Assembly (NCBI GenBank): GCA_038204725.1
Contig: JBBRCQ010000002.1
Span: 50,846-114,845, forward strand
Source of the DNA: Bacteroidales bacterium
Lineage (GTDB): Bacteria; Bacteroidota; Bacteroidia; Bacteroidales; JACABE01
Reading direction: 5' to 3'
DNA: 64,000 nt
Made by a program: the position numbers and the translations under genes. Below the pieces are notes generated by a model, which saw only the letters and a program-made list of their open reading frames with translations, searched no databases and was not told the origin of the DNA. How positions within the stretch are numbered: position 1 is the stretch's first letter; every line of letters starts with the position of its first letter. Shown piece by piece: positions 1 through 63,430 of this stretch.

Positions 1-1020
1 CATTTCATCATACATGTATTTAAAAACATCTTCCAATTGATAAGCAGGATGATTTTCTGCAGCTTCAAATTGTCTGTCAACCTCTTTTTTATATTCTATC
101 ACCAATTGATCTTCCTCTTTTTGAGTCCATATTTTTTTATTGATCAAATACTTGTTTAATCTGTACAAAGGGTCTTTGAGTCCCCAAACGGTTTCTTCTT
201 CCTTTGTCCTGTATTTAGTAGGATCATCAGATGTAGTATGCGCTCCTCTACGATAGGTTTCAGCTTCTATCAAAACCGGACCTTTTCCTGCTAATGCATG
301 TTCAGCAGCATTTTTTACAGCTTGATACATGGCGAAAAAATCATTTCCATCTACCTGTATGCCTTCCATACCATAAGCAACCGATTTAATAGCAATACCT
401 TTTGATACAGTTTGCATTTTAAATGGGGTAGAAATGCCGTATTGATTGTTTTGTACAATAAAAACCACGGGGACTTTCCATACAGCAGCAAAATTAAGTG
501 ATTCATGAAAATCACCTTCCGATGTTCCACCATCACCCACAAATGCAAAAACAACTTGCTCTTTTTTATTGTATTTTATTTCATAGCCAATTCCTGTAGC
601 ATGCGCTAATTGTGAAGCAATGGGAACCGACATCGGTAGCATATTATTGGCGTTTTTAAAAATGGCACCTTCTTCGTTGCCCATAAAAACAAGAAAAATT
701 TCTTTAAGTGTAGCACCCTTAGCTATATAAGCACCCAATTCACGGAAAGCAGGTACCAACCAGTCTTCGTTGCGCATTACCATAGCTGTTGCTCCTGAAA
801 TAGCTTCTTGTCCGTGATTGGGAGGGTAAGTATATATTCGACCTTGTCGTTGGTAAGAAACAGTTTGTAAATCGGCTATTCTTGCAAAAAGCATATCTTT
901 GTATGCTTTTATCAGTTTTTTATCAGTAATTTCAGGCATCCATTTCTTATTGATAACTTTGCCTTCGTTATCAATTACCCTGAATATCTTTTCTTTTAAA
1001 GGATTATATTCTTCAAACAT
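1..1020 (-). CDS. TPP-dependent 2-oxo-acid dehydrogenase E1 alpha subunit (pyruvate/acetoin/branched-chain type); C-terminal part lies outside the window
   Basis: Absent from the ORF track because there is no stop inside the window. My translation of the minus strand from the ATG at 1018-1020 gives MFEEYNPLKEKIFRVIDNEGKVINKKWMPEITDKKLIKAY... It later contains the TPP-binding signature FVGDGGTSEGDFHESLNFAAVWKVP. The frame stays open to position 1. Confidence 0.85.
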   Translation of the reverse strand, partial: MFEEYNPLKEKIFRVIDNEGKVINKKWMPEITDKKLIKAYKDMLFARIADLQTVSYQRQGRIYTYPPNHGQEAISGATAMVMRNEDWLVPAFRELGAYIAKGATLKEIFLVFMGNEEGAIFKNANNMLPMSVPIASQLAHATGIGYEIKYNKKEQVVFAFVGDGGTSEGDFHESLNFAAVWKVPVVFIVQNNQYGISTPFKMQTVSKGIAIKSVAYGMEGIQVDGNDFFAMYQAVKNAAEHALAGKGPVLIEAETYRRGAHTTSDDPTKYRTKEEETVWGLKDPLYRLNKYLINKKIWTQKEEDQLVIEYKKEVDRQFEAAENHPAYQLEDVFKYMYDEM

Positions 1021-1119
1021 TTTCTCTTTAGTACTAATGAATAATTAATTTTAAGTTAATATAGAACAATTATAAATAGGAAAGGTTCAAAATGTAACTG
1101 AAAGTGATATGACGTTATT

Positions 1120-1536
1120 TCAATGGATTTTTTTTATCCCTTCCAGTAATTTAATAATTTTATCTAATTTTTCAACATCCAAAATATCCAGCTTTTTTGC
1201 CAAATCTTCAATTTCCAGTTTTGCATCAACATTAGTTTGGTAATCGGATTCAGCATGCATTCTGTCTCTTTCGTTTTGCCGGTTTTGTGCCATCATAATA
1301 ATTGGTGCTGCATAAGCAGCTTGAGTAGAAAAAACCAGATTAAGTAATATGAATGGATACACATCCCAATGAGCAATAAACCCGAACACATTCAATCCCA
1401 TCCAAAGAATTACCAAAATTGTTTGTATAATGATAAAACTCCATGACCCCATACCTGCAGCTACAGAATCAGCTAAACGATTCCCAAAAGTTAATGTTTC
1501 ACTATGTTTTTCATGCCAATTTTTATGATTTTTCAT
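1120..1536 (-). CDS. DUF1003-family membrane protein
   Basis: 138 aa. Two central TM helices (SWSFIIIQTILVILWMGLNVFGF; YPFILLNLVFSTQAAYAAPIIMMAQN), then RQNERDR and a coiled C-terminus. This layout is typical of DUF1003. Confidence 0.65.
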   Translation of the reverse strand: MKNHKNWHEKHSETLTFGNRLADSVAAGMGSWSFIIIQTILVILWMGLNVFGFIAHWDVYPFILLNLVFSTQAAYAAPIIMMAQNRQNERDRMHAESDYQTNVDAKLEIEDLAKKLDILDVEKLDKIIKLLEGIKKIH

Positions 1537-17562: not shown

Positions 17563-17590
17563 CACTTCGACTTTGCTTAGTGTTCAGTGA
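17563..17590. repeat. Single copy of the CACTTCGACT-N2-GCT-N-AGTG dispersed motif
   Basis: CACTTCGACTTTGCTTAGTGTTCAGTGA. Related to the 24-mer at 59323-59418 and to 63295-63315. Confidence 0.7.
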
Positions 17591-22467: not shown

Positions 22468-22788
22468 GATATTTCCAGCTTTTCGGAAGGAGACATTCAT
22501 GTATATCCAAATCCTGTGCAGGATTAGCTGAATGTACAGTTCAAAGGTACTGTCACTGCAGATGGCTGCAGCTATCAATTGTATGATGGAGAAGGCAGGC
22601 TTTTTTCAAGTAATGGAAGTATGCAAATGCTCACAAAAGTAAATATGCAACCTGCTAAAAAAGGGGTTTACTATTTAGTAGTATTGGCTAAAGATGGGAA
22701 TGAGAATGTATTGGAAAGTGGTGATGCAGTAAATGGCCTATCCCCCTTGCCCCCTTTCCAAAAGAAAGGGGGTAAGAGTTCCTCCTGA
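22468..22788 (+). pseudogene. Relic T9SS C-terminal sorting domain with an in-frame TAG (22525-22527)
   Basis: Reads DISSFSEGDIHVYPNPVQD*LNVQFKGTVTADGCSYQLYDGEGRLF...KKGVYYLVVLAKDG. There is no N-terminal body upstream. Confidence 0.6.
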
Positions 22789-23031
22789 ATGGAATATAAT
22801 TTTTCCAAAGGAAATAGATAATAATAGTTGTTTTCTTAAACAATGGCCGTTTCGGTGCTTACATCTTTACCTGTATGATAGCAGGTAGAACTAAGCCTAT
22901 CCCCCTTGCACCTTTCCAAAAGAAAGGGGGTAAGAGTTCCTCCTGAATGGAATATAATTTTCCCAAAGGAAATAGATAAGGATAGTTGTTTTCTTAAACA
23001 ATAGCAGTTTCGGTGCTTACATCTTTACCGG
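22737..23031. repeat. Tandem direct duplication, 159-bp period (copy A 22737-22873, copy B 22896-23031)
   Basis: The copies are near-identical over about 137 nt. Each includes the hairpin CCCCCTTTC-CAAAA-GAAAGGGGG and the last 12 codons of the minus-strand gene 22994..23749. Confidence 0.9.
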
Positions 23032-23749
23032 TTTGCCGGCGTGTAGAGCGGGCTTTGAGCTGGGTTTTGTAATAAAGGATCAGATCATTCAATTCATTGG
23101 CCATGGTGGAATAATCAAGTTCTTCATATTCGTTAGCACAAAATTCGATGGCATCGAAAAAGGAAAAGACGGCTTTGTCGGTTATAATACGTATGCTGCG
23201 TGAATCAATTTTTTCTGTGGTTCCATTTTCACCGGTACGCTGTAAAAACAGTTTGTCAAATTCCGTATTAACGATAGAAAGCTGATCGAACCATAACTTT
23301 AGATTTAATCCTTCCACTGCAGTTTTTACCTCGGGTTTTGCATCATAATCCTTCAGGAAATCGGTTATACGTTTGGTTTCTGAATTGTAGTTGGCCGATG
23401 CTATATCACGGCCATGAATGTCGAGAAAATGATTTAATACTTTAACATGTGGAACAATGGAAGGCAGACTTAGTTTTTCCATCGTTTTAACCTGAGCTGA
23501 AATGGCATTAAACAATGTGTCGCGTTCATTGTCCAGTTCCAGCAATTGATTGCTGATGACATTGCTCATTTCATGTGCTTTTATTTTTTCCAGCACTGGA
23601 AGTTTAAGGGTGATACCCTGAAACGACTTTGTTAAATGCAATTCGGATGTGTCGTATTTCTTTACGATCCCGACAATCTGGTTCACAAACATTGTATATT
23701 CGCTGTTCCAGAGTGTGTTTATTGATAAACGAATAATTTTTATTTTCAT
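22994..23749 (-). CDS. Hypothetical all-alpha protein (Bacteroidota-restricted family, DUF6261-like by recollection)
   Basis: 251 aa with no catalytic motifs. The helical heptad-like sequence has conserved-looking LDNERDTLF and NYNSETKRI segments. Confidence 0.5.
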   Translation of the reverse strand: MKIKIIRLSINTLWNSEYTMFVNQIVGIVKKYDTSELHLTKSFQGITLKLPVLEKIKAHEMSNVISNQLLELDNERDTLFNAISAQVKTMEKLSLPSIVPHVKVLNHFLDIHGRDIASANYNSETKRITDFLKDYDAKPEVKTAVEGLNLKLWFDQLSIVNTEFDKLFLQRTGENGTTEKIDSRSIRIITDKAVFSFFDAIEFCANEYEELDYSTMANELNDLILYYKTQLKARSTRRQTGKDVSTETAIV

Positions 23750-23980: not shown

Positions 23981-24247
23981 ACAAACTGAATCTGTTTTGA
24001 GCTAAACACGTGATGGAAAAGTCAAACTGAATCCGTTTTGAGCTAAACACTTGATGGAAAAGTCAAACTGAAACTGTTTTGAGCTAAACACGTGATGGAA
24101 ATGTCAAACTGAATCTGTTTTGAGCTAAACACGTGATGGAAAAGTCAAACTGAATCTGTTTTGAGCTAAACACTTGATGGAAATGTCAAACTGAATCTGT
24201 TTTGAGCTAAACACGTGATAGAAAAGGCAAACTGAATCTGTTTTTTT
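23981..24247. repeat. 41-bp tandem repeat x6.5 (TCAAACTGAATCTGTTTTGAGCTAAACACGTGATGGAAAAG)
   Basis: Units start at 23981, 24022, 24063, 24104, 24145, 24186 and 24227 (partial). Variation is confined to a few positions. CACGTG is present in units 1, 3, 4 and 6; CACTTG in units 2 and 5. Confidence 0.95.
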
Positions 24248-26815: not shown

Positions 26816-26873
26816 ATTGATAATAGAATAATTATATTTTCGGTCTTCCGACTTAATATCCAATAACTTTGAA

Positions 26874-26903
26874 ACCCTGACAGGTTTCAAACCCTGTCAG
26901 GGT
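26874..26903. terminator. Bidirectional hairpin between convergent genes (ACCCTGACAGG-tttcaaac-CCTGTCAGGGT)
   Basis: An 11-bp perfect stem in the convergent gap between the receptor stop (26815) and the J-domain gene stop (26976). Confidence 0.6.
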
Positions 26904-26940
26904 TATGTTAATCATTCTCTGTACTTTTGATTATCTTTGG

Positions 26941-26964
26941 ACTTCCGACTTCCGACTTCCGACT
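26941..26964. repeat. Heptamer array ACTTCCG x3.4
   Basis: Direct reading. Lies 12 nt from the stop of the minus-strand gene 26976..27425. Confidence 0.9.
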
Positions 26965-26975
26965 CAATCACCCAA

Positions 26976-30500: not shown

Positions 30501-30569
30501 TGGTTATTTGTTAATTGTTAATTGTTAGTGGTAATTTGGGATTAGGTTAATAAGTCCGAAGTCCGAAGT
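30501..30569. repeat. Phased heptamers TGGTTAT TTGTTAA TTGTTAA TTGTTAG TGGTAAT ... (30501-30549), then GTCCGAA x2.3 (30554-30569)
   Basis: Direct reading. The array begins 10 nt upstream of the folD start and reads AACAATT/AACCAAT in the sense orientation. Confidence 0.85.
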
Positions 30570-30616
30570 AAAAAATACTTTTGTCATAAAAGAAGTAGAA
30601 GTACAGTCATTATTTA

Positions 30617-35240: not shown

Positions 35241-36263
35241 TTAGGATTTCAAAATGTTTTTCTTATAAATATTTTCGATAAATATGAGCACCAGTATGGA
35301 AAGCATAAATGCAGAAAAAGATGAAACCAGTACGATTAACCAGCGAACAGGTGTTGTTTTCTTTTCAGCGATATAAGCTGAATCAACTACAAATTTCTGT
35401 GGCATATATTCTTCAGCATCTATTTTGGCTTCATCATATTTTGATTTAACCCTGCTTAATTGTTCTATTTTGTATACAAGCAGGTTGCGTAAAGTAACAT
35501 AGATGCCGCCATATTTCGACAACGTATCAAGTTTTGCATTTAGGCTCTTAATGCCTGCTTTGTTTGCTTTACCTATCTGAATGGCTAATTCCTGATTTGT
35601 CATTTCAGCCTGGGTTTCATAATCGTTGATTCCTTTTTCACGTATAATTTTCAGGGAATCATTGATATAAGCTATTTCTTTTTGGATGCTTTCATAATTT
35701 GTCTTTACGATTTCAAAACCTCTGATTGCACGTTCTTTTTGCATTGCATTTTTGGTAGAATCCAATAAATTGGAAATGGTATTGGCGATATCTGCAGCCA
35801 TTTTAGGGTCTTTGTCCAATACCGAAATCTCAACTGCCATAAATTCGGTTCTCTTAAAACTGATGTTGTCTTTATATTCCAGATTCAAATAGGTATTTTT
35901 GAATTTTGCATCTGCTTTGATGTTATAATGTTTAGCCAGATCAAAGCGTTGGATTACCTTATCTCTGATTATACTTGAGTTTAATATCTGTAATAATTGC
36001 TCAGCTTGTTCTTCTTCTCCAAAATCAAGAATATCTGTTTTATTTCCGGGATTTTCACTCAATAAAGCTTTAGAAATGGAATTGGATGAAGTTGGGAATA
36101 AGATTACTGTTGATTTAAATTTTGGTGTAATTAAAAATGATGCTGCTGCTGATAGAATTGCAGATGCCAATGTAACTATTATTAGTGTTTTACGCCAATT
36201 CCATAAAAAAATAAAAAAATTGGTCGAATTAAAATCAGTAGTATTTTTATTGATTTCTGTCAT
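35241..36263 (-). CDS. Polysaccharide chain-length determinant (Wzz-like, PCP family)
   Basis: 340 aa. N- and C-terminal TM helices flank a long coiled region, in glycan-locus context. Confidence 0.6.
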   Translation of the reverse strand: MTEINKNTTDFNSTNFFIFLWNWRKTLIIVTLASAILSAAASFLITPKFKSTVILFPTSSNSISKALLSENPGNKTDILDFGEEEQAEQLLQILNSSIIRDKVIQRFDLAKHYNIKADAKFKNTYLNLEYKDNISFKRTEFMAVEISVLDKDPKMAADIANTISNLLDSTKNAMQKERAIRGFEIVKTNYESIQKEIAYINDSLKIIREKGINDYETQAEMTNQELAIQIGKANKAGIKSLNAKLDTLSKYGGIYVTLRNLLVYKIEQLSRVKSKYDEAKIDAEEYMPQKFVVDSAYIAEKKTTPVRWLIVLVSSFSAFMLSILVLIFIENIYKKNILKS

Positions 36264-36338
36264 ATAAATTGAATTTTTCAGGCAAAAATAGGAAATTTTA
36301 TTGATATAGCGTTAAAGAGATTGAGTTTTTAGTGATTA

Positions 36339-36377
36339 GGTTAATGGGTTATTGGGTTACTGAGCTTTTTACTCAGT
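36339..36377. repeat. Mosaic modules A (GGTTAAT GGGTTAT TGGGTTA) and B (hairpin ACTGAG-N7-CTCAGT)
   Basis: Direct reading. The counterpart in inverted orientation is at 63387-63415. Confidence 0.85.
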
Positions 36378-36420
36378 CACGAGCTGCAATTTCTTACGAA
36401 GTAAGGTTTCTGAGTGAGAT

Positions 36421-36537
36421 CGACGCTAAGCGACAGCTCAGTCCCGAGCCACAATTTCTCGACGCTAAGCGACAGCTTAGTCCCGAGCCACAATTTCTCG
36501 ACGCTAAGCGACAGCTTAGTCCCGAGCTACAATTTCT
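36421..36537. repeat. Mosaic module C: 39-nt unit x3 head-to-tail (CGACGCTAAGCGACAGCTYAGTCCCGAGCYACAATTTCT)
   Basis: Units at 36421, 36460 and 36499, with a partial copy at 36378-36403. Each contains the hairpin CTAAGC-N4-GCTTAG. Confidence 0.95.
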
Positions 36538-36550
36538 TACGAAGTATGAG

Positions 36551-36636
36551 TTAGAAATTGTTATTCGGGAAGTTAGAAATTGTTATTCGGGAAGTTAGAA
36601 ATTGTTATTCGGGAAGTTAGAAATTGTTATTCGGGA
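36551..36636. repeat. Mosaic module D: 22-nt unit x4 (TTAGAAATTGTTATTCGGGAAG)
   Basis: Units at 36551, 36573, 36595 and 36617. They abut with no spacers. Confidence 0.95.
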
Positions 36637-36684
36637 TTGAGTTATTTTAGTCTATTAGGCTATTAATAACTGATAACTATTTAG

Positions 36685-36747
36685 CTGTTCACTATTCACT
36701 ATTCACTATTCACTTTTCACTTTTCGCTGTTCACTGTTCACTATTCG
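36685..36747. repeat. Mosaic module E: nine phased heptamers (CTGTTCA/CTATTCA/CTTTTCA...)
   Basis: Direct reading. The array ends 4 nt from the flippase stop codon at 36752 and reads AGTGAAY in the sense orientation. Confidence 0.95.
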
Positions 36748-36751
36748 CCTA

Positions 36752-38206
36752 TCATTTCGATTTATTTTGAATGAGTGTAAGCAGCGATTTGAAATTTAAT
36801 AATTTTAGGAATGAAGCATAAACAATAGATAAAAATACCATCCCAATAAAGTTATACATCCATTTAGTTTCAATAAAATGTTTTGAAAAAATATTGATAA
36901 ATACTACACCGATAGCAAAAGCAAGTATTGAAATTAAAAAACGATAATCTACTTTGAATTTAAATACTTTTTGGGCAATGATTACCTGAATAATTGCACT
37001 CAGAAATTGTGTGATGATGCTTGAATAAGCTGATCCAACAGCTTCTAATCGTGGGATTAAAATAAAATTAAGCGAAATATTCAACAGCATTCCTGTAGCA
37101 GCTATAAAATTCAATTCTTTAAGATTTCCGTTTGCAGTGAGCAATGTTCCAAATACATAAGTAGTTGAAACTGCAATAAATCCCATCATCAGCCATTTAA
37201 AAACAGCTGCGGATTCTTCAACATGACTGGTATATAACAATCCCATAATTTCCATGCTGTAAAAAAAAGAACCGATGGCTACTACCAATGCTAATGTAAT
37301 AAGGAGTTTGTATGATAATTTTACAATATGCACAATCTCTTCTCCGTTTTTAAGCATTTTTGAAAACAATGGAAGCAAAAGCACGGCAAAAAGATATGCT
37401 ATCATATTGGTAGCATCCAGCAAACGATAGGAAGAAGCATAAATTCCAGCTTGTTCGTCACCTTTTGTATTGGGTAACAGCCTTTCTAGCATTACTGAAT
37501 CGATACGGTTGTAGAATGTCATCAACAAAGCCAGGATAGCAAAAGGAAAGCTTTGTTTTATAATCATTATAAAAAATGGTCGATTCCAATTGAGGCGGGT
37601 AAAAGCAGATTTTCGTTTGACAACAATAAATGCAATAATTGCAGTTATCAGATAAGCAGCAGTTTGTGCATATACAAACCATTCTATCTGGAAAGGACCT
37701 GAAATAACATTGCCCCATATCAAGATTCCACAAAATATAATCATTAGCGTTCTGTCCAATACCGAGACAATGCTATCGGTTTTAAACAGCAATAACCCTG
37801 AGATATTGCTTCTTAAGTACAAAACAAAAGAAATTAAAAACTGGTTGAATATCATCCAGCCCAATATATATAACTGATGGTTGCTATATCCAACCAACAG
37901 ACCAAAACTGAGCGTTAATACAGCAAAAACGAAGGCTAACATTAACTTAAGAATCAATATACCCGAAAAGTGTTTGTTGAGCAAATGATTGTTTTGGGCT
38001 ATGTTTTTGTTGTTGAAATTGGTAATGCCAAAGTCTAATAAAATATTGAAAAGAAAAGAAAAATTAAAGATTGCAAAATAAAACCCATAATCAGCAGCAC
38101 CTACCATATTTTGGACAGATCTGTCAATCCCTAAAATCCAAAATGGTTTGATTAAAAGATTTAAAGCTAACAGGAAGATAAGATTGGTAAGAAATTTTCG
38201 CTGCAT
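36752..38206 (-). CDS. Polysaccharide flippase (MOP/Wzx-like)
   Basis: 484 aa with about 12-14 TM segments, in glycan-locus context. Confidence 0.65.
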   Translation of the reverse strand: MQRKFLTNLIFLLALNLLIKPFWILGIDRSVQNMVGAADYGFYFAIFNFSFLFNILLDFGITNFNNKNIAQNNHLLNKHFSGILILKLMLAFVFAVLTLSFGLLVGYSNHQLYILGWMIFNQFLISFVLYLRSNISGLLLFKTDSIVSVLDRTLMIIFCGILIWGNVISGPFQIEWFVYAQTAAYLITAIIAFIVVKRKSAFTRLNWNRPFFIMIIKQSFPFAILALLMTFYNRIDSVMLERLLPNTKGDEQAGIYASSYRLLDATNMIAYLFAVLLLPLFSKMLKNGEEIVHIVKLSYKLLITLALVVAIGSFFYSMEIMGLLYTSHVEESAAVFKWLMMGFIAVSTTYVFGTLLTANGNLKELNFIAATGMLLNISLNFILIPRLEAVGSAYSSIITQFLSAIIQVIIAQKVFKFKVDYRFLISILAFAIGVVFINIFSKHFIETKWMYNFIGMVFLSIVYASFLKLLNFKSLLTLIQNKSK

Positions 38207-40291: not shown

Positions 40292-40417
40292 TAAGTCGGA
40301 AGTCGGAAGTCGGAAGTCGGAAGTCCGAAGTCGGAAGTCGGAAGTCCGAAGATTGAAGATTGAAGATTGAAGATTGAAGATTGAAGATTGAAGATTGAAG
40401 ATTGAAGATTGAAGATT
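40292..40417. repeat. 18 phased heptamers: 8 x GAAGTC(G/C), then 10 x GAAGATT
   Basis: Direct reading. The GAAGATT copies start at 40348, 40355 ... 40411. Confidence 0.97.
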
Positions 40418-40459
40418 GAAAAAGACCAATTACCAATAATATAATAACTAAAATATAGA

Positions 40460-42468: not shown

Positions 42469-42741
42469 ATGAATTTCAATAGCATCTTGTTGAATGGCAA
42501 AAGTATCCGGTTGAATGTCAAAAGCATCCGTATGAGTAGCAAAAGCTTATTAACGAATTAAAAAACCAACCGGATGAATAGCAAAAGTATTCGGGTGAGT
42601 GATAAAACCATCCAGATGAATTGCAAAAGCATACTGACGAATGATAAAACCAACCGGACGAATTGCAAATGCATCTGAATAAATACCAAAAGCATTCCCG
42701 TGAATGGCAATACTGTTTCATTGAATTGCTGTAAAGGATTT
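42469..42741. repeat. Degenerate 21-nt tandem repeat, about 13 units (consensus RTGAATNGCAAAAGCATCCGG)
   Basis: Units were phased by eye from 42469. Stops occur in all frames. Confidence 0.8.
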
Positions 42742-43932: not shown

Positions 43933-44697
43933 ATGTCCTACAATCCCAACCGCCATCATCGCCGAAGCATCCGCCTGAAAGGATATGATTATTCGCAGAC
44001 GGGGATGTATTTTATTACAATTTGTTGCCATAACCATAACTATCGTTTTGGGAAAATCGAGAAAGGGAAAATGAAACTGAATAATTATGGTGAAATTGCC
44101 GGAATAGAATGGTTTTGTTTACAGGAAAGGTTTAGTAATATACGATTAGATGCGTTTGTTGTAATGCCTAATCATATTCATTGTATTATCATTATCAAAA
44201 AAAATAAATATACGGGGGCGGGGTTTACCCCCGCCAATACCCTAACCCCAACGTATAATTCCGTAGGGGCGGGGCTTGCCCCCGCCCTAATAGGACAACC
44301 CGCAAATCAAAATTCAGGGATCAACACCGGTCAGATAATCAACCAATATCAATTGGAAGATAAAAACGAAAAGGGCGATCGTAAAGATCGCCCCAACGAC
44401 GAATCAGAAGGGCTAGACGCAGAGGGCGACCGTAAAGGTCGCCCTGACGAACCAATGGACGAAAGGGAAGAAGAAAAGAAGGTGACCATTGGCGCAATCA
44501 TTGGAGCATATAAGTCTTTGGTGTTTAATAATTGTCTGAAATCAGCCAAAGAAAATAATCTGTATTTAGGTAAGTTCTGGCAAAGAGATTTTTTTGAAAA
44601 TATTGTACGCAATGAAGCAGCTTATAAGAAAATAACTGACTATATTATTCATAATCCTGAAAGATGGGAAGATGATAAATTTTATACTAAAGATTAA
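43933..44697 (+). CDS. REP-associated tyrosine transposase (RAYT; IS200-like Y1 HUH family) with about 85-codon internal insertion
   Basis: 254 aa. N-terminal HRRSIRLKGYDYSQTGMYFITICC, HUH motif VMPNHIHCII, WQRDFFENIVRNE, and a catalytic-Tyr helix ITDYIIHNPERW. Confidence 0.8.
   Translation: MSYNPNRHHRRSIRLKGYDYSQTGMYFITICCHNHNYRFGKIEKGKMKLNNYGEIAGIEWFCLQERFSNIRLDAFVVMPNHIHCIIIIKKNKYTGAGFTPANTLTPTYNSVGAGLAPALIGQPANQNSGINTGQIINQYQLEDKNEKGDRKDRPNDESEGLDAEGDRKGRPDEPMDEREEEKKVTIGAIIGAYKSLVFNNCLKSAKENNLYLGKFWQRDFFENIVRNEAAYKKITDYIIHNPERWEDDKFYTKD
44217..44444. repeat. Four GC-rich perfect stem-loops inside the RAYT CDS (44217-44235, 44267-44287, 44373-44393, 44424-44444)
   Basis: GGCGGGG/CCCCGCC; GGGCGGGG/CCCCGCCC (preceded by GTAG at 44263-44266); GGGCGATC/GATCGCCC; GGGCGACC/GGTCGCCC. 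Confidence 0.95.
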
Positions 44698-53191: not shown

Positions 53192-53224
53192 TTCGAAATT
53201 CGTAATTTGTAATTCGTAATTTTT
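53192..53224. repeat. Heptamer array TTCGAAA TTCGTAA TTTGTAA TTCGTAA abutting the moaA stop codon
   Basis: Direct reading. Confidence 0.9.
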
Positions 53225-59286: not shown

Positions 59287-59288
59287 GA

Positions 59289-59320
59289 AAATTAAAAATT
59301 AAAAATTAAAAATTAAAAAG
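59289..59320. repeat. Heptamer array AAAATTA x4.5, starting 2 nt upstream of the holA start
   Basis: Direct reading. Confidence 0.9.
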
Positions 59321-59322
59321 TA

Positions 59323-59418
59323 GCACTTCGACTATGCTCAGTGACCGCACTTCGACTATGCTCAGTGACCGCACTTCGACTATGCTCAGTGACCGCACTT
59401 CGACTATGCTCAGTGGCC
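59323..59418. repeat. 24-nt tandem repeat x4 (GCACTTCGACTATGCTCAGTGACC)
   Basis: Units at 59323, 59347, 59371 and 59395 (the last has G for A). They abut with no spacers. Confidence 0.97.
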
Positions 59419-59459
59419 GGATATTTTGTCTTTGATCTTCCGTCTCAATAATCCGGCAA

Positions 59460-62653: not shown

Positions 62654-63100
62654 ATGATTCCGCTTAATTTCCCATCATTTCCATTTAAAATTAGAAAAAC
62701 ACAGAAAGGTGAAGAGATTTTTGATATAATCCGGAAGAAATATGTTGCATTTACTGAAGAGGAATGGGTAAGGCAGCATTGTATTGCCTATCTGATCAGT
62801 GAAAAAAAATATCCTGCATCACTTATGGCAGTAGAAAAAGGACTTAGCGTAAACGGACTTAAGAAAAGAACTGATATTGTTACTTTTACAAAGGATGGAA
62901 ACCCTAAACTGATTGTTGAATGTAAAGCTCCACATATTGAGATTACGAATGATACATTTGATCAGATTGCTCGTTACAACATGACGTTGAAAGTTAATTA
63001 TCTATTGGTTACCAATGGATTGCAACATTTTTGCTGTGTTATTGATCATCAGGAAGGCAGTTACAGATTTTTGGAAGAAGTGCCTGAGTATGGTCAGTGA
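62654..63100 (+). CDS. Stand-alone type I restriction enzyme HsdR N-terminal-domain-like (HSDR_N_2) protein
   Basis: 148 aa with LNFPSFPFKIRKTQKGEEIFDIIRKKYVAFTEEEWVRQH...RTDIVTF...LIVECKAP, a PD-(D/E)xK-like core. The family is common in Bacteroidota. Confidence 0.7.
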   Translation: MIPLNFPSFPFKIRKTQKGEEIFDIIRKKYVAFTEEEWVRQHCIAYLISEKKYPASLMAVEKGLSVNGLKKRTDIVTFTKDGNPKLIVECKAPHIEITNDTFDQIARYNMTLKVNYLLVTNGLQHFCCVIDHQEGSYRFLEEVPEYGQ

Positions 63101-63150
63101 AGAGTGAAGAGTGAAGAGTGAAGAGTGAATAGAGAATAGTGAATAGTGAA
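63094..63150. repeat. Heptamer array (AGAGTGA x4, ATAGAGA, ATAGTGA x2) that includes the TGA stop of the upstream gene
   Basis: Direct reading. The stop at 63098-63100 is in phase with the array. Confidence 0.95.
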
Positions 63151-63210
63151 TTTATTTATCCCGACGGGTACGAAGTTCCCGACGGGTTAAATAAGAAGTA
63201 ATCAATTATT

Positions 63211-63245
63211 AGTGAACAGTGAATAGTGAATAGTGAACAGTGAAT
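63211..63245. repeat. Heptamer array AGTGAAC AGTGAAT AGTGAAT AGTGAAC AGTGAAT
   Basis: Direct reading. It is the reverse complement of module E at 36685-36747. Confidence 0.95.
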
Positions 63246-63270
63246 AATAACTATTAACCATTAAATCAAT

Positions 63271-63415
63271 CCCGAATAACAATTTCTAACTCATGCTTCG
63301 ACTCCGCTCAGCAACAACTTCGTAAGAAATTGTAAATCGGGACTAAGCTATCGCTTAGCATACTTCGTAAGAAATTGTAGCTCGGGACTGAGCAAAAGCT
63401 CAGTAACCATTAACC
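63271..63415. repeat. Mosaic modules D (63271-63290), CTTCGACT motif (63295-63315), C x2 (63318-63393), B hairpin (63387-63404) and A (63405-63415), inverted relative to 36339-36636
   Basis: Direct comparison of the reverse complement with 36339-36640. Confidence 0.9.
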
Positions 63416-63430
63416 AAAAACAAAACAAAG

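Follow-up and report, generated by a model that had tools for sequence, protein, structure and literature searches.

A candidate hairpin element nested in polar tandem-repeat arrays at two intergenic loci of a Bacteroidales genome

Elhai et al. are said to have described in 2008 how cyanobacterial short tandemly repeated repetitive (STRR) heptamer arrays act as landing sites for hairpin-forming small dispersed repeats (SDRs). The DNA analysed here, a 64-kb stretch from a Bacteroidales bacterium (the window, GC ~33%), contains two intergenic mosaics in which a hairpin element of ~67 nt appears to be nested in arrays of 7- and 8-nt units. The first mosaic occupies 36332–36751 (locus 1), and the second is the reverse complement of 63094–63430 (locus 2). 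The element is best filed as a previously undescribed family in Bacteroidales, nested in polar tandem arrays.

The closest precedents are the cyanobacterial heptamer arrays with their SDRs, the palindromic repeats of Proteobacteria and the heptamers of the TAACTGA type. The palindromic repeats of Proteobacteria, namely the repetitive extragenic palindromic (REP) elements, the bacterial interspersed mosaic elements (BIMEs) and the hairpin-forming REP doublets (REPINs), are mobilised by REP-associated tyrosine transposases (RAYTs) (PMC2817692, PMC3116915), and their defining arrangement is a rayt gene flanked by two inverted copies of its cognate REP (PMC2817692). The TAACTGA-type heptamers are found in Beggiatoaceae, cyanobacteria and a few Bacteroidetes, including Paludibacter of the Bacteroidales (MacGregor 2015, PMC4679880). 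Before start codons they are in forward orientation and past a stop codon in reverse, and their arrays are missing in relatives at the same gene neighbourhoods (PMC4679880). In Elizabethkingia, two nearly identical intergenic regions carry "larger assemblages of heptamer repeats" (PMC4679880).

The hairpin element and its two mosaics

The original prediction had divided locus 1 into five modules, A to E, recurring in the same order on the reverse complement of locus 2. Each module is found either exactly where it had been placed or a few bases away, and the two spacers are homologous mosaics with the same modules in the same order. Alignment and predicted folding indicate that one hairpin element of ~67 nt comprises modules B, C and D. 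It has a small hairpin, ACTRAGC-N4-GCTYAGT, which lies outside the left arm of the imperfect inverted repeat that comes next. The two arms of this repeat, TCCCGAGCTACAATTTCT and AGAAATTGTTATTCGGGA, are 17 nt long, enclose a loop of 14 nt and are complementary at 14–15 of 17 positions. The C core and D are predicted to pair on either strand, forming a 6+9-bp stem with the 14-nt loop, while module B aligns with the small hairpin that opens every C unit (ACTGAGC-N4-GCTCAGT or CTAAGC-N4-GCTTAG). The earlier statement that the mosaics lack terminal inverted repeats does not hold, since the C core is an imperfect inverted repeat of D. On either strand, the entire unit, which is AT-rich (GC ~40%), is predicted to form two hairpins (−20 to −28 kcal/mol, z about −6).

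The window carries the element at these two loci only, both of them extragenic. Probes for the C core (25-mer) and for D (22-mer), with up to 3 mismatches allowed, gave 4 and 5 matches, all in the two loci, as compared to 0.00 expected from shuffles. A scan of 185,579 species-representative genomes for the C core returned a single match, at a locus from an uncultured Bacteroidales metagenome-assembled genome (MAG) from Lake Loclat (L001). There, one clean 67-nt unit (860–926) lies in phase within an (ATTTGGTG)n octamer array, and its flanking genes are unrelated to those of the window. This unit is 94% identical over 67 nt to the window unit at 36504–36570, with 41 consecutive identical bases. 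The remainder of L001 bears no resemblance to the window, and no genes common to L001 and either the window or the examined relatives were found. A combined nhmmer and covariance-model search over ~220 kb, including ~150 kb from relatives, detected the element at the two window loci and L001, and nowhere else. Because only these sites matched, the element appears to be a recent, lineage-restricted gain, and not a conserved regulatory part of the flanking genes.

At all three sites, array units lie on both sides of the element, and its orientation relative to the A-type array is the same. The borders at locus 1 read ...GGGTTATTGGGTT before the element and ATTGAGTTATTTTAGT... after it, and those at locus 2 read ...TGGTTAATGGTT and TTGATTTAATGGTTAATAGTT..., both of them A-type repeats. 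At L001 the element directly follows a gene (950–1333, minus strand) whose product is a 23S rRNA intervening-sequence (four-helix-bundle) protein (PF05635, E 1e-16), and this gene is placed between an aconitase-family gene and an HD-domain gene.

Locus 1 separates a Polysacc_synt/MurJ flippase gene (36752–38206) from a Wzz gene (35241–36263), both on the minus strand according to the open reading frame (ORF) listing and Pfam. On the Wzz side, an A-type array (36335–36359, minus strand) reads AACCCAATAACCCATTAACC in sense, and Tandem Repeats Finder (TRF), used for all tandem repeats, assigns it a period of 8 (ATTGGGTT x3.1). Module A had been described as heptamers; the array is there, but it mixes 7- and 8-nt units. 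It is followed by a truncated unit (36359–36403) consisting of the hairpin ACTGAG-CTTTTTA-CTCAGT (module B; ACTGAGCTTTTTACTCAGT, 36359–36377), a left arm (CACGAGCTGCAATTTCT) and half a loop. This unit, whose partial C copy covers 36372–36403, is 91% identical to the copy at 36515 and scores 27.5 bits with the covariance model. Next comes a 22-nt segment, X (AGGTTTCTGAGTGAGATCGACG, 36404–36425), recognised by eye, with ~14/16 core positions matching (CTGAGYGRAGWTCGAMGC). Module C is a 39-nt tandem array (36420–36537; TRF 39 nt x3.0, 97% matches), in which each unit joins the tail of X (TCGACG), a small hairpin and a left arm.

The last copy of this array opens the complete 67-nt unit (36504–36570), which runs CTAAGC-GACA-GCTTAG, left arm TCCCGAGCTACAATTTCT, loop TACGAAGTATGAGT and right arm AGAAATTGTTATTCGGGA, and scores 97.5 bits with the covariance model. 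Its predicted two-hairpin fold has −24 to −28 kcal/mol and a z of about −6.3. Module D, the right inverted-repeat arm (AGTTAGAAATTGTTATTCGGGA), is present in four tandem copies (36549–36636; TRF 22 nt x4.0, 100% identical) that are predicted to pair with the C cores, three of them being additional to the arm of the complete unit. The arms of locus 1 are therefore grouped as four left, in one orientation, and then four right. Across the whole spacer the predicted fold has a z of −6.5, with the D copies nesting against the C copies. Beyond the element, degenerate octamers on the minus strand, ATTGAGTT ATTTTAGT CTATTAGG (36637–36675; TTAGGCTA x2.4 by TRF at 36647–36665), continue the A-type array as read from the sequence. 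The E-type array (36676–36748, minus strand), with the sense (AGTGAAY/AAAGTGA)n, comprises ~10 heptamers (TRF period 7 x10 at 36676–36746) and begins 3–4 nt past the flippase stop.

At locus 2, the spacer lies between genes for HSDR_N_2 (62654–63100) and NTP_transferase (from 63431), both on the plus strand by the same listing and Pfam. The first part of its E-type array, (AGTGAAG/AGTGAAT)n (63096–63150, plus strand; TRF period 7 x7.9), overlaps the HSDR_N_2 stop codon. The array is split by a second small palindromic insert (TTTATTTATCCCGACGGGTACGAAGTTCCCGACGGGTTAAATAAG..., 63151–63210, plus strand; predicted fold −19.3 kcal/mol, z −3.5), in which CCCGACGGG occurs at 63160 and 63178 and at no other position of the window. 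The second part, (AGTGAAC/AGTGAAT) x5, occupies 63211–63245 on the plus strand (TRF period 7 x4.9). A-type sequence (AATAACTATTAACCATTAAATCAA, 63246–63269, plus strand) follows, and because it stands on the stop-codon side, the element lies within an A-type array at this locus as well.

The complete unit of locus 2 (63270–63359, plus strand; 77.8 bits with the covariance model) reads, in sense, right arm, X-bearing loop, left arm and CTAAGC-GATA-GCTTAG. Its right arm, the single D copy, spans 63270–63291, the 22-nt X insert spans 63295–63316, and the predicted fold places X in the loop (−26.6 kcal/mol, z −5.3). A truncated unit (63360–63404, plus strand; self-repeat match 97%), consisting of half a loop, a left arm and the hairpin ACTGAGC-AAAA-GCTCAGT, lies next to it, so that locus 2 has one full and one truncated unit, with two left arms and one right. 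The C cores are at 63317–63341 and 63362–63386, and the whole-spacer fold has a predicted z of −4.4. The last A-type stretch, AACCATTAACC (63405–63415, plus strand), ends 15 nt 5' of the NTP_transferase ATG.

The comparison of the two loci upholds much of the original prediction. The flanking genes lie on opposite strands, and thus the mosaics have identical orientation relative to transcription; the copy numbers differ (D x4 versus x1, with more left arms at locus 1); and the similarity excludes the flanking genes, as flippase and Wzz are unrelated to HSDR_N_2 and NTP_transferase. Mosaic 1 is matched exactly over its first 206 nt by a short-read assembly (Logan SRR19962012, L002) from the same strain. 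The matching contig ends within the 39-nt array, and sister contigs stop in heptamer arrays. The sequence of mosaic 1 is therefore real, the exact copy numbers of the 39-nt and 22-nt arrays being outside the reach of this check.

Polar arrays and syntenic relatives

Modules A and E are polar short-tandem-repeat families that occur throughout the clade and are not specific to the two mosaics. We surveyed 88 co-directional spacers (15.4 kb) at 8 loci, six of them in related genomes and the other two being the window and L001. Read in sense, the A-type units (AACCATT / AATAACC / AAATCACC) are G-poor and stand just before start codons, and the E-type unit (AGTGAAY) stands just after stop codons. 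AGTGAA was in sense and stop-proximal in 23 of 27 occurrences, the other three classes holding 0, 0 and 4, and TAACC was in sense and start-proximal 32 times, as compared to 5, 4 and 4 in the other classes. Counted per spacer, the TAACC arrays were on the sense strand and start-proximal in 8/8 true spacers. Within the window, element-free A-type arrays lie right before start codons at 30503 and 53099, and an E-like array lies past a stop codon at 30616.

The orthologous spacers of the relatives contain the same types of array with other units and copy numbers. The Ffh-to-FolD spacer has (AACCATT)n in L037 and (AACYTAAT)n in L034, with CAGTGAG/CAGTAAT or TCAGTTA past the stop codon. Similarly, between the QueE and OmpA-like genes of L038, AGTAAACAGTGAACAGTGAAT follows the stop codon and an (AATAACC)n array precedes the start. 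The fixed orientation claimed for the modules holds for A and E, which are strongly polar, but not for all of the repeats: either orientation relative to genes is seen for the AAGTCGG/CTTCGGA heptamers, for the X segment and for the related 24-mer. X has a homologue in the loop of locus 2, and its reverse complement is related to the 24-mer x4 array at 59323–59419 and to a single copy near 17563.

The window encodes LpxD, EF-P, Wzy_C, Wzz, a Polysacc_synt/MurJ flippase, glycosyltransferases and TonB-dependent receptors, as is typical of Bacteroidota. Its proteins have their closest homologues in uncultured Bacteroidales MAGs, at 78–86% identity, with Lentimicrobium at ~60%. Gene order is kept over tens of kilobases in the relatives used for the synteny comparison (L027/L037, L034, L035, L038 and L031; 78–86% protein identity). 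The flippase-to-Wzz spacer measures 488 nt in the window and 152–224 nt in five relatives, and the HSDR_N-to-NTP_transferase spacer measures 330 nt in the window, compared to 11 nt for L027 and 71 nt for L031. None of the orthologous spacers examined in the relatives contains the element.

Between flippase and Wzz, the window and the relatives have in common only AAATCAYC octamers and one invariant block. This 29-nt block, TATCAATAAAwTTTCyTAyTTTTGCCTGA, lies ~15–45 nt upstream of the Wzz ATG and is invariant in six genomes (the window, L034, L035, L037, L038 and L040). In the window it occupies 36278–36306 on the minus strand (TATCAATAAAATTTCCTATTTTTGCCTGA), with a match to the Bacteroidota −7 motif TAnnTTTG at 36283–36290. 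We regard it as a putative, strongly conserved promoter or operator for the Wzz–Wzy genes, and mosaic 1 sits between the flippase stop codon and this promoter-like element. In another relative (L028, 5266–5616; L029; L030), HSDR_N is followed by a different gene, that of a B12-binding methionine-synthase-like operon, and the 290–350-nt spacer has a conserved GC-richer segment that resembles a riboswitch-type leader.

Several other spacers of the window also contain tandem repeats. At 40293–40420, between the radical-SAM (QueE-like) and OmpA/TPR genes, (AAGTCGG) x8 is directly followed by (GAAGATT) x10, and the relatives have spacers of 70–119 nt with other heptamers or octamers at this position. 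The holA-to-PNP_UDP spacer (59288–59419) consists of (AAAATTA) x4.6 and then the 24-mer GCACTTCGACTATGCTCAGTGACC x4; its orthologues in the relatives, of 57–138 nt, are without both arrays. A convergent spacer (26816–26975) has a perfect 12-bp hairpin (AACCCTGACAGG / CCTGTCAGGGTT; −22 kcal/mol, z −5.6) amid (GACTTCC)n fragments, and represents a further case of a hairpin within a heptamer array. Two longer repeats accompany a TonB-dependent receptor gene: a 41-nt unit x6.4 (CAAACTGAATCTGTTTTGAGCTAAACACGTGATGGAAAAGT) in the divergent spacer upstream (23982–24244), and a 158-nt unit x1.9 with the hairpin CCCCCTTTCC-AAAA-GAAAGGGGG downstream (22736–23032). Just past the OmpA-like gene, a degenerate array (42469–42710; ATGAATAGCAAAAGCATCCGG) with a 21/42/84-nt period and ~11.5 copies at 61–81% matches overlaps a doubtful 100-aa ORF that has no Pfam match.

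Origin of the mosaics

We consider it rather probable that the mosaics arose by insertion of the hairpin element into polar A-type arrays and subsequent tandem amplification of its subparts, and that they are fast-evolving non-coding repeat DNA. Three layers would be superimposed. The slippage-prone 7–8-nt arrays, their polarity fixed relative to genes, would be a trait of the clade; a small, non-autonomous hairpin element would insert into the A-type arrays; and subparts (the hairpin plus left arm x3, and the right arm x4) would then be amplified in tandem, with the 22-nt X segment inserted either between units or into the loop. Slippage during replication, or unequal recombination, is the most likely route to both the amplification and the gain of X. 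Because the four D copies are perfectly identical, the amplification appears to be very recent.

The conserved module order and the shared orientation, which the original prediction had pointed out, follow from how the element is ordered internally, from its fixed orientation within the array and from the fact that the arrays are polar; a new organising principle is not needed. The cumulative GC skew has no evident reversal across the two loci, yet the element lies in opposite absolute orientations, and its orientation therefore seems to track the genes or arrays and not the direction of replication. Bacteroidota are largely without Shine-Dalgarno (SD) sequences, and the polarity near start codons plausibly reflects selection for unstructured, G-poor leaders in these SD-less bacteria. 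Effects on expression of the kind known from REP elements and BIMEs, such as a barrier at the 3' end or the uncoupling of neighbouring genes, would be secondary.

We infer that the element moves, or once moved, as a non-autonomous mobile element. Its mobilisation may proceed through hairpin DNA in single-stranded form and depend on a transposase of the Y1/RAYT type, such as that encoded in the window at 43933–44697 on the plus strand. This gene has the features of a RAYT-like Y1 (HUH) transposase (NCBIfam REP_Tyr_transpos E 4e-16, 59 bits, cutoff 80; Pfam Y1_Tnp 22.2 bits, cutoff 23; PDB 4er8 TnpA_REP E 1e-3), and its distance from locus 1 is 7 kb. The segment that contains it is missing at the syntenic position of the relatives. 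As the mobiliser of the element the gene is a doubtful candidate, and the link is weak. Within the gene, an ~85-aa insert (44216–44445) separates the HUH and tyrosine regions and contains four GC-rich palindromes, GGGGCGGGG-TTTA-CCCCCGCC, GGGGCGGGG-CTTG-CCCCCGCCC, GGGCGATCG-TAA-AGATCGCCC and GGGCGACCG-TAA-AGGTCGCCC, which have no other occurrence in the window, in a genome of 33% GC. The homologues are 173–348 aa long, which suggests that the insert is variable.

Several observations weigh against insertion of a mobile element. No copies of the element flank the RAYT-like gene by nhmmer or the covariance model; the gene scores below the curated cutoffs of NCBIfam and Pfam, and it belongs to a very large, widespread family with homologues in the thousands, the closest at 54% identity. 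Neither an autonomous partner nor an insertion sequence with matching ends was found in the window, and no target-site duplication is readable in a target that is itself 7–8-nt periodic. With only three known insertion sites, chance alone would give the shared orientation with a probability of 0.25, and the target preference is anecdotal. An exact scan of JGI metagenome contigs for the D unit gave 22 matches, all of them chance matches with no C module nearby, and two exact-pattern scans of viral contigs (C core plus loop) gave 0; because the former are at chance level and the latter empty, the known spread of the element is limited to two genomes. Moreover, mosaic 2 expands what is elsewhere an intra-operon gap, and it is probably transcribed, because the sense strand of its spacer is free of the TAnnTTTG motif and in L027 just 11 nt separate the two genes.

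This probable co-transcription of locus 2 speaks for a different explanation, in which the mosaics are selected intercistronic or 3'-untranslated elements. As functional structured RNAs, their hairpins would stabilise the mRNA, block exonucleases, attenuate readthrough or tune the downstream gene, and the A and E arrays would serve as protein- or ribosome-binding tracts. The orientation relative to transcription, which is the same at 3/3 sites, and the persistence of A/E polarity at orthologous spacers across genomes are in line with such a role, and for similar heptamers a part in translation has been suggested (PMC4679880). However, the element itself is missing from the orthologous spacers of every relative examined. 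The predicted structure is very strong, but the antisense strand is predicted to fold slightly better (−26 and −28 kcal/mol) than the sense strand (−20 and −24 kcal/mol). In the hairpin copy at 36426–36441, an A.C mismatch becomes a G.U pair on the sense strand, while the lone compensatory pair in the small hairpin is non-significant, as 64 of 500 shuffles were as good.

Scans for sigma-70 promoters and intrinsic terminators found none, with 0 terminator-like sites and no U-tract terminator. A search of the whole window against Rfam gave no match at gathering thresholds, and for the locus the hits at E up to 10 were at chance level. The perfect 22-nt copies, too, indicate very recent slippage and not a conserved design. 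Taken together, we regard a selected RNA function as unlikely, and on the same Rfam result a riboswitch or another known RNA family was rejected. It is more doubtful still that the arrays and hairpins form a clade-wide system of operon punctuation, with A tracts as sites for translation initiation or RNA-binding proteins, E tracts as 3'-end signals and the hairpin as a mobile module that rewires gene coupling. If true, SD-less Bacteroidota would possess an intergenic code that is functional and evolvable, and the unexplained TAACTGA-type repeats of Beggiatoaceae and cyanobacteria would find their explanation as well.

A segmental duplication or gene conversion, in which one mosaic was copied from the other or both were homogenised without any mobile element, would account for the equal module order, for the GGTT in common to the left of B and for a similarity that runs 8 nt past D (CGGGATTGAGTTA versus CGGGATTGATTTA). 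This extra junction similarity is, however, explained by similar A-type targets, and the flanking genes are unrelated. In addition, X lies between units at locus 1 but in the loop at locus 2, the copy numbers differ, the extra palindromic insert is limited to locus 2, and a third copy exists in another MAG, in a different octamer array and among unrelated genes. We therefore hold duplication to be very unlikely.

An origin in place, with the longer units grown from heptamers by mutation and longer-period slippage and their likeness due to a common mutational bias, is highly improbable. TTACGAA heptamers at 53192 do resemble the TTACGAAGT loop, and the CTTCGGA/AAGTCGG arrays and the 24-mer resemble the TCGAAG core of X, but independent slippage cannot yield the 41 identical consecutive bases of L001, and the 25-mer and 22-mer matches are ones for which 0 are expected by chance. 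Finally, it is hardly credible that the mosaic is an assembly artefact, easily as repeats are mis-assembled, or a small antisense protein gene (ORF 36332–36598, plus strand, 88 aa, spanning modules A to D), given the exact short-read match over 206 nt and an ORF that translates tandem repeats, has no Pfam match and runs antisense to the operon.

Comparison with known repeat classes

The original prediction held that no feature class describes these spacers, a view that the analysis does not support. On the reading that we favour, insertion of a hairpin element into polar arrays followed by amplification, the five modules reduce to two things with precedents, polar arrays and a hairpin element resembling miniature inverted-repeat transposable elements (MITEs) or REPINs. 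The mosaics would thus combine mobile-like hairpin repeats with slippage-prone arrays, which calls for caution against over-reading similar mosaics in Bacteroidales MAGs; they also break short-read assemblies. CRISPR arrays, which had been excluded before, were likewise rejected here: the units are contiguous, without unique spacers, and no cas gene was present among the proteins examined. Two aspects appear to be new. One is the element family itself, which has no Rfam match and no exact copies in the metagenome and viral scans, and whose arms are amplified in blocks. The other is that start- and stop-proximal repeat families hold their polarity across several related genomes despite turnover in units and copy numbers.

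Like REPs, REPINs and BIMEs, the element is extragenic, contains imperfect palindromes and forms modular mosaic clusters of variable copy number. As in a REPIN, two inverted arms make a long hairpin, here a 6–7-bp hairpin plus 17-nt arms. Its presence or absence among related genomes and the RAYT-like Y1 gene within the same 64 kb are further similarities to REPs and REPINs. Unlike in BIMEs, where regularly spaced REPs alternate in orientation and the basic modules are joined head to tail, the arms do not alternate but are amplified in blocks (left x4 and right x4 at locus 1). In REPs, a conserved GTAG/GTGG head abuts the palindrome, whereas here GTAG (2), GTGG (2), GCAG (1) and GTAA (2) precede CTCGGG on the sense strand, and between this variable tetranucleotide and the small hairpin there are 7 nt. 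Unlike a true rayt, the RAYT-like gene is not flanked by the element. The element also differs from REPs and REPINs in being AT-rich, in having a Bacteroidales host and in being set inside tandem-repeat arrays. REPs and REPINs number more than ~100 copies per genome; the 64 kb analysed here, a part of the genome, contain 2 loci of the element, both extragenic. The element, then, behaves like a REP or BIME but stands apart from both in its offset, variable head, its block-wise arms and the unflanked RAYT-like gene.

MITEs are similar to the element in being small and non-coding, with inverted repeats and dispersed copies that are present or absent among relatives. A target-site duplication would be hidden by the periodic target, and no insertion sequence with these ends occurs in the window. 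Unlike in MITEs, an extra hairpin lies outside the inverted repeat, and the 67 nt of the element are at the low end of their size. The likeness to the cyanobacterial STRRs and SDRs, an analogy and not a family membership, lies in a small dispersed hairpin element nested in intergenic heptamer or octamer arrays, giving composite spacers. The SDRs are 21–27 nt long, whereas the unit here has ~67 nt, distinct arms and an extra hairpin, and belongs to another phylum. We know of no sequence similarity between the element and the SDRs.

With the TAACTGA-type heptamers, the arrays of the window and its relatives share a polar arrangement, with TAACC start-proximal and AGTGAA stop-proximal. Their units are related, not identical, to those heptamers, exact TAACTGA being occasional (in L037, and as TCAGTTA past stop codons), and the hairpin element inside the arrays has no counterpart among those described (PMC4679880). 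The clade, with its syntenic genomes with and without arrays, offers a comparative system for questions of translation and transcript ends. In their polarity, the arrays extend the heptamer phenomenon (PMC4679880) to an uncultured clade of Bacteroidales.

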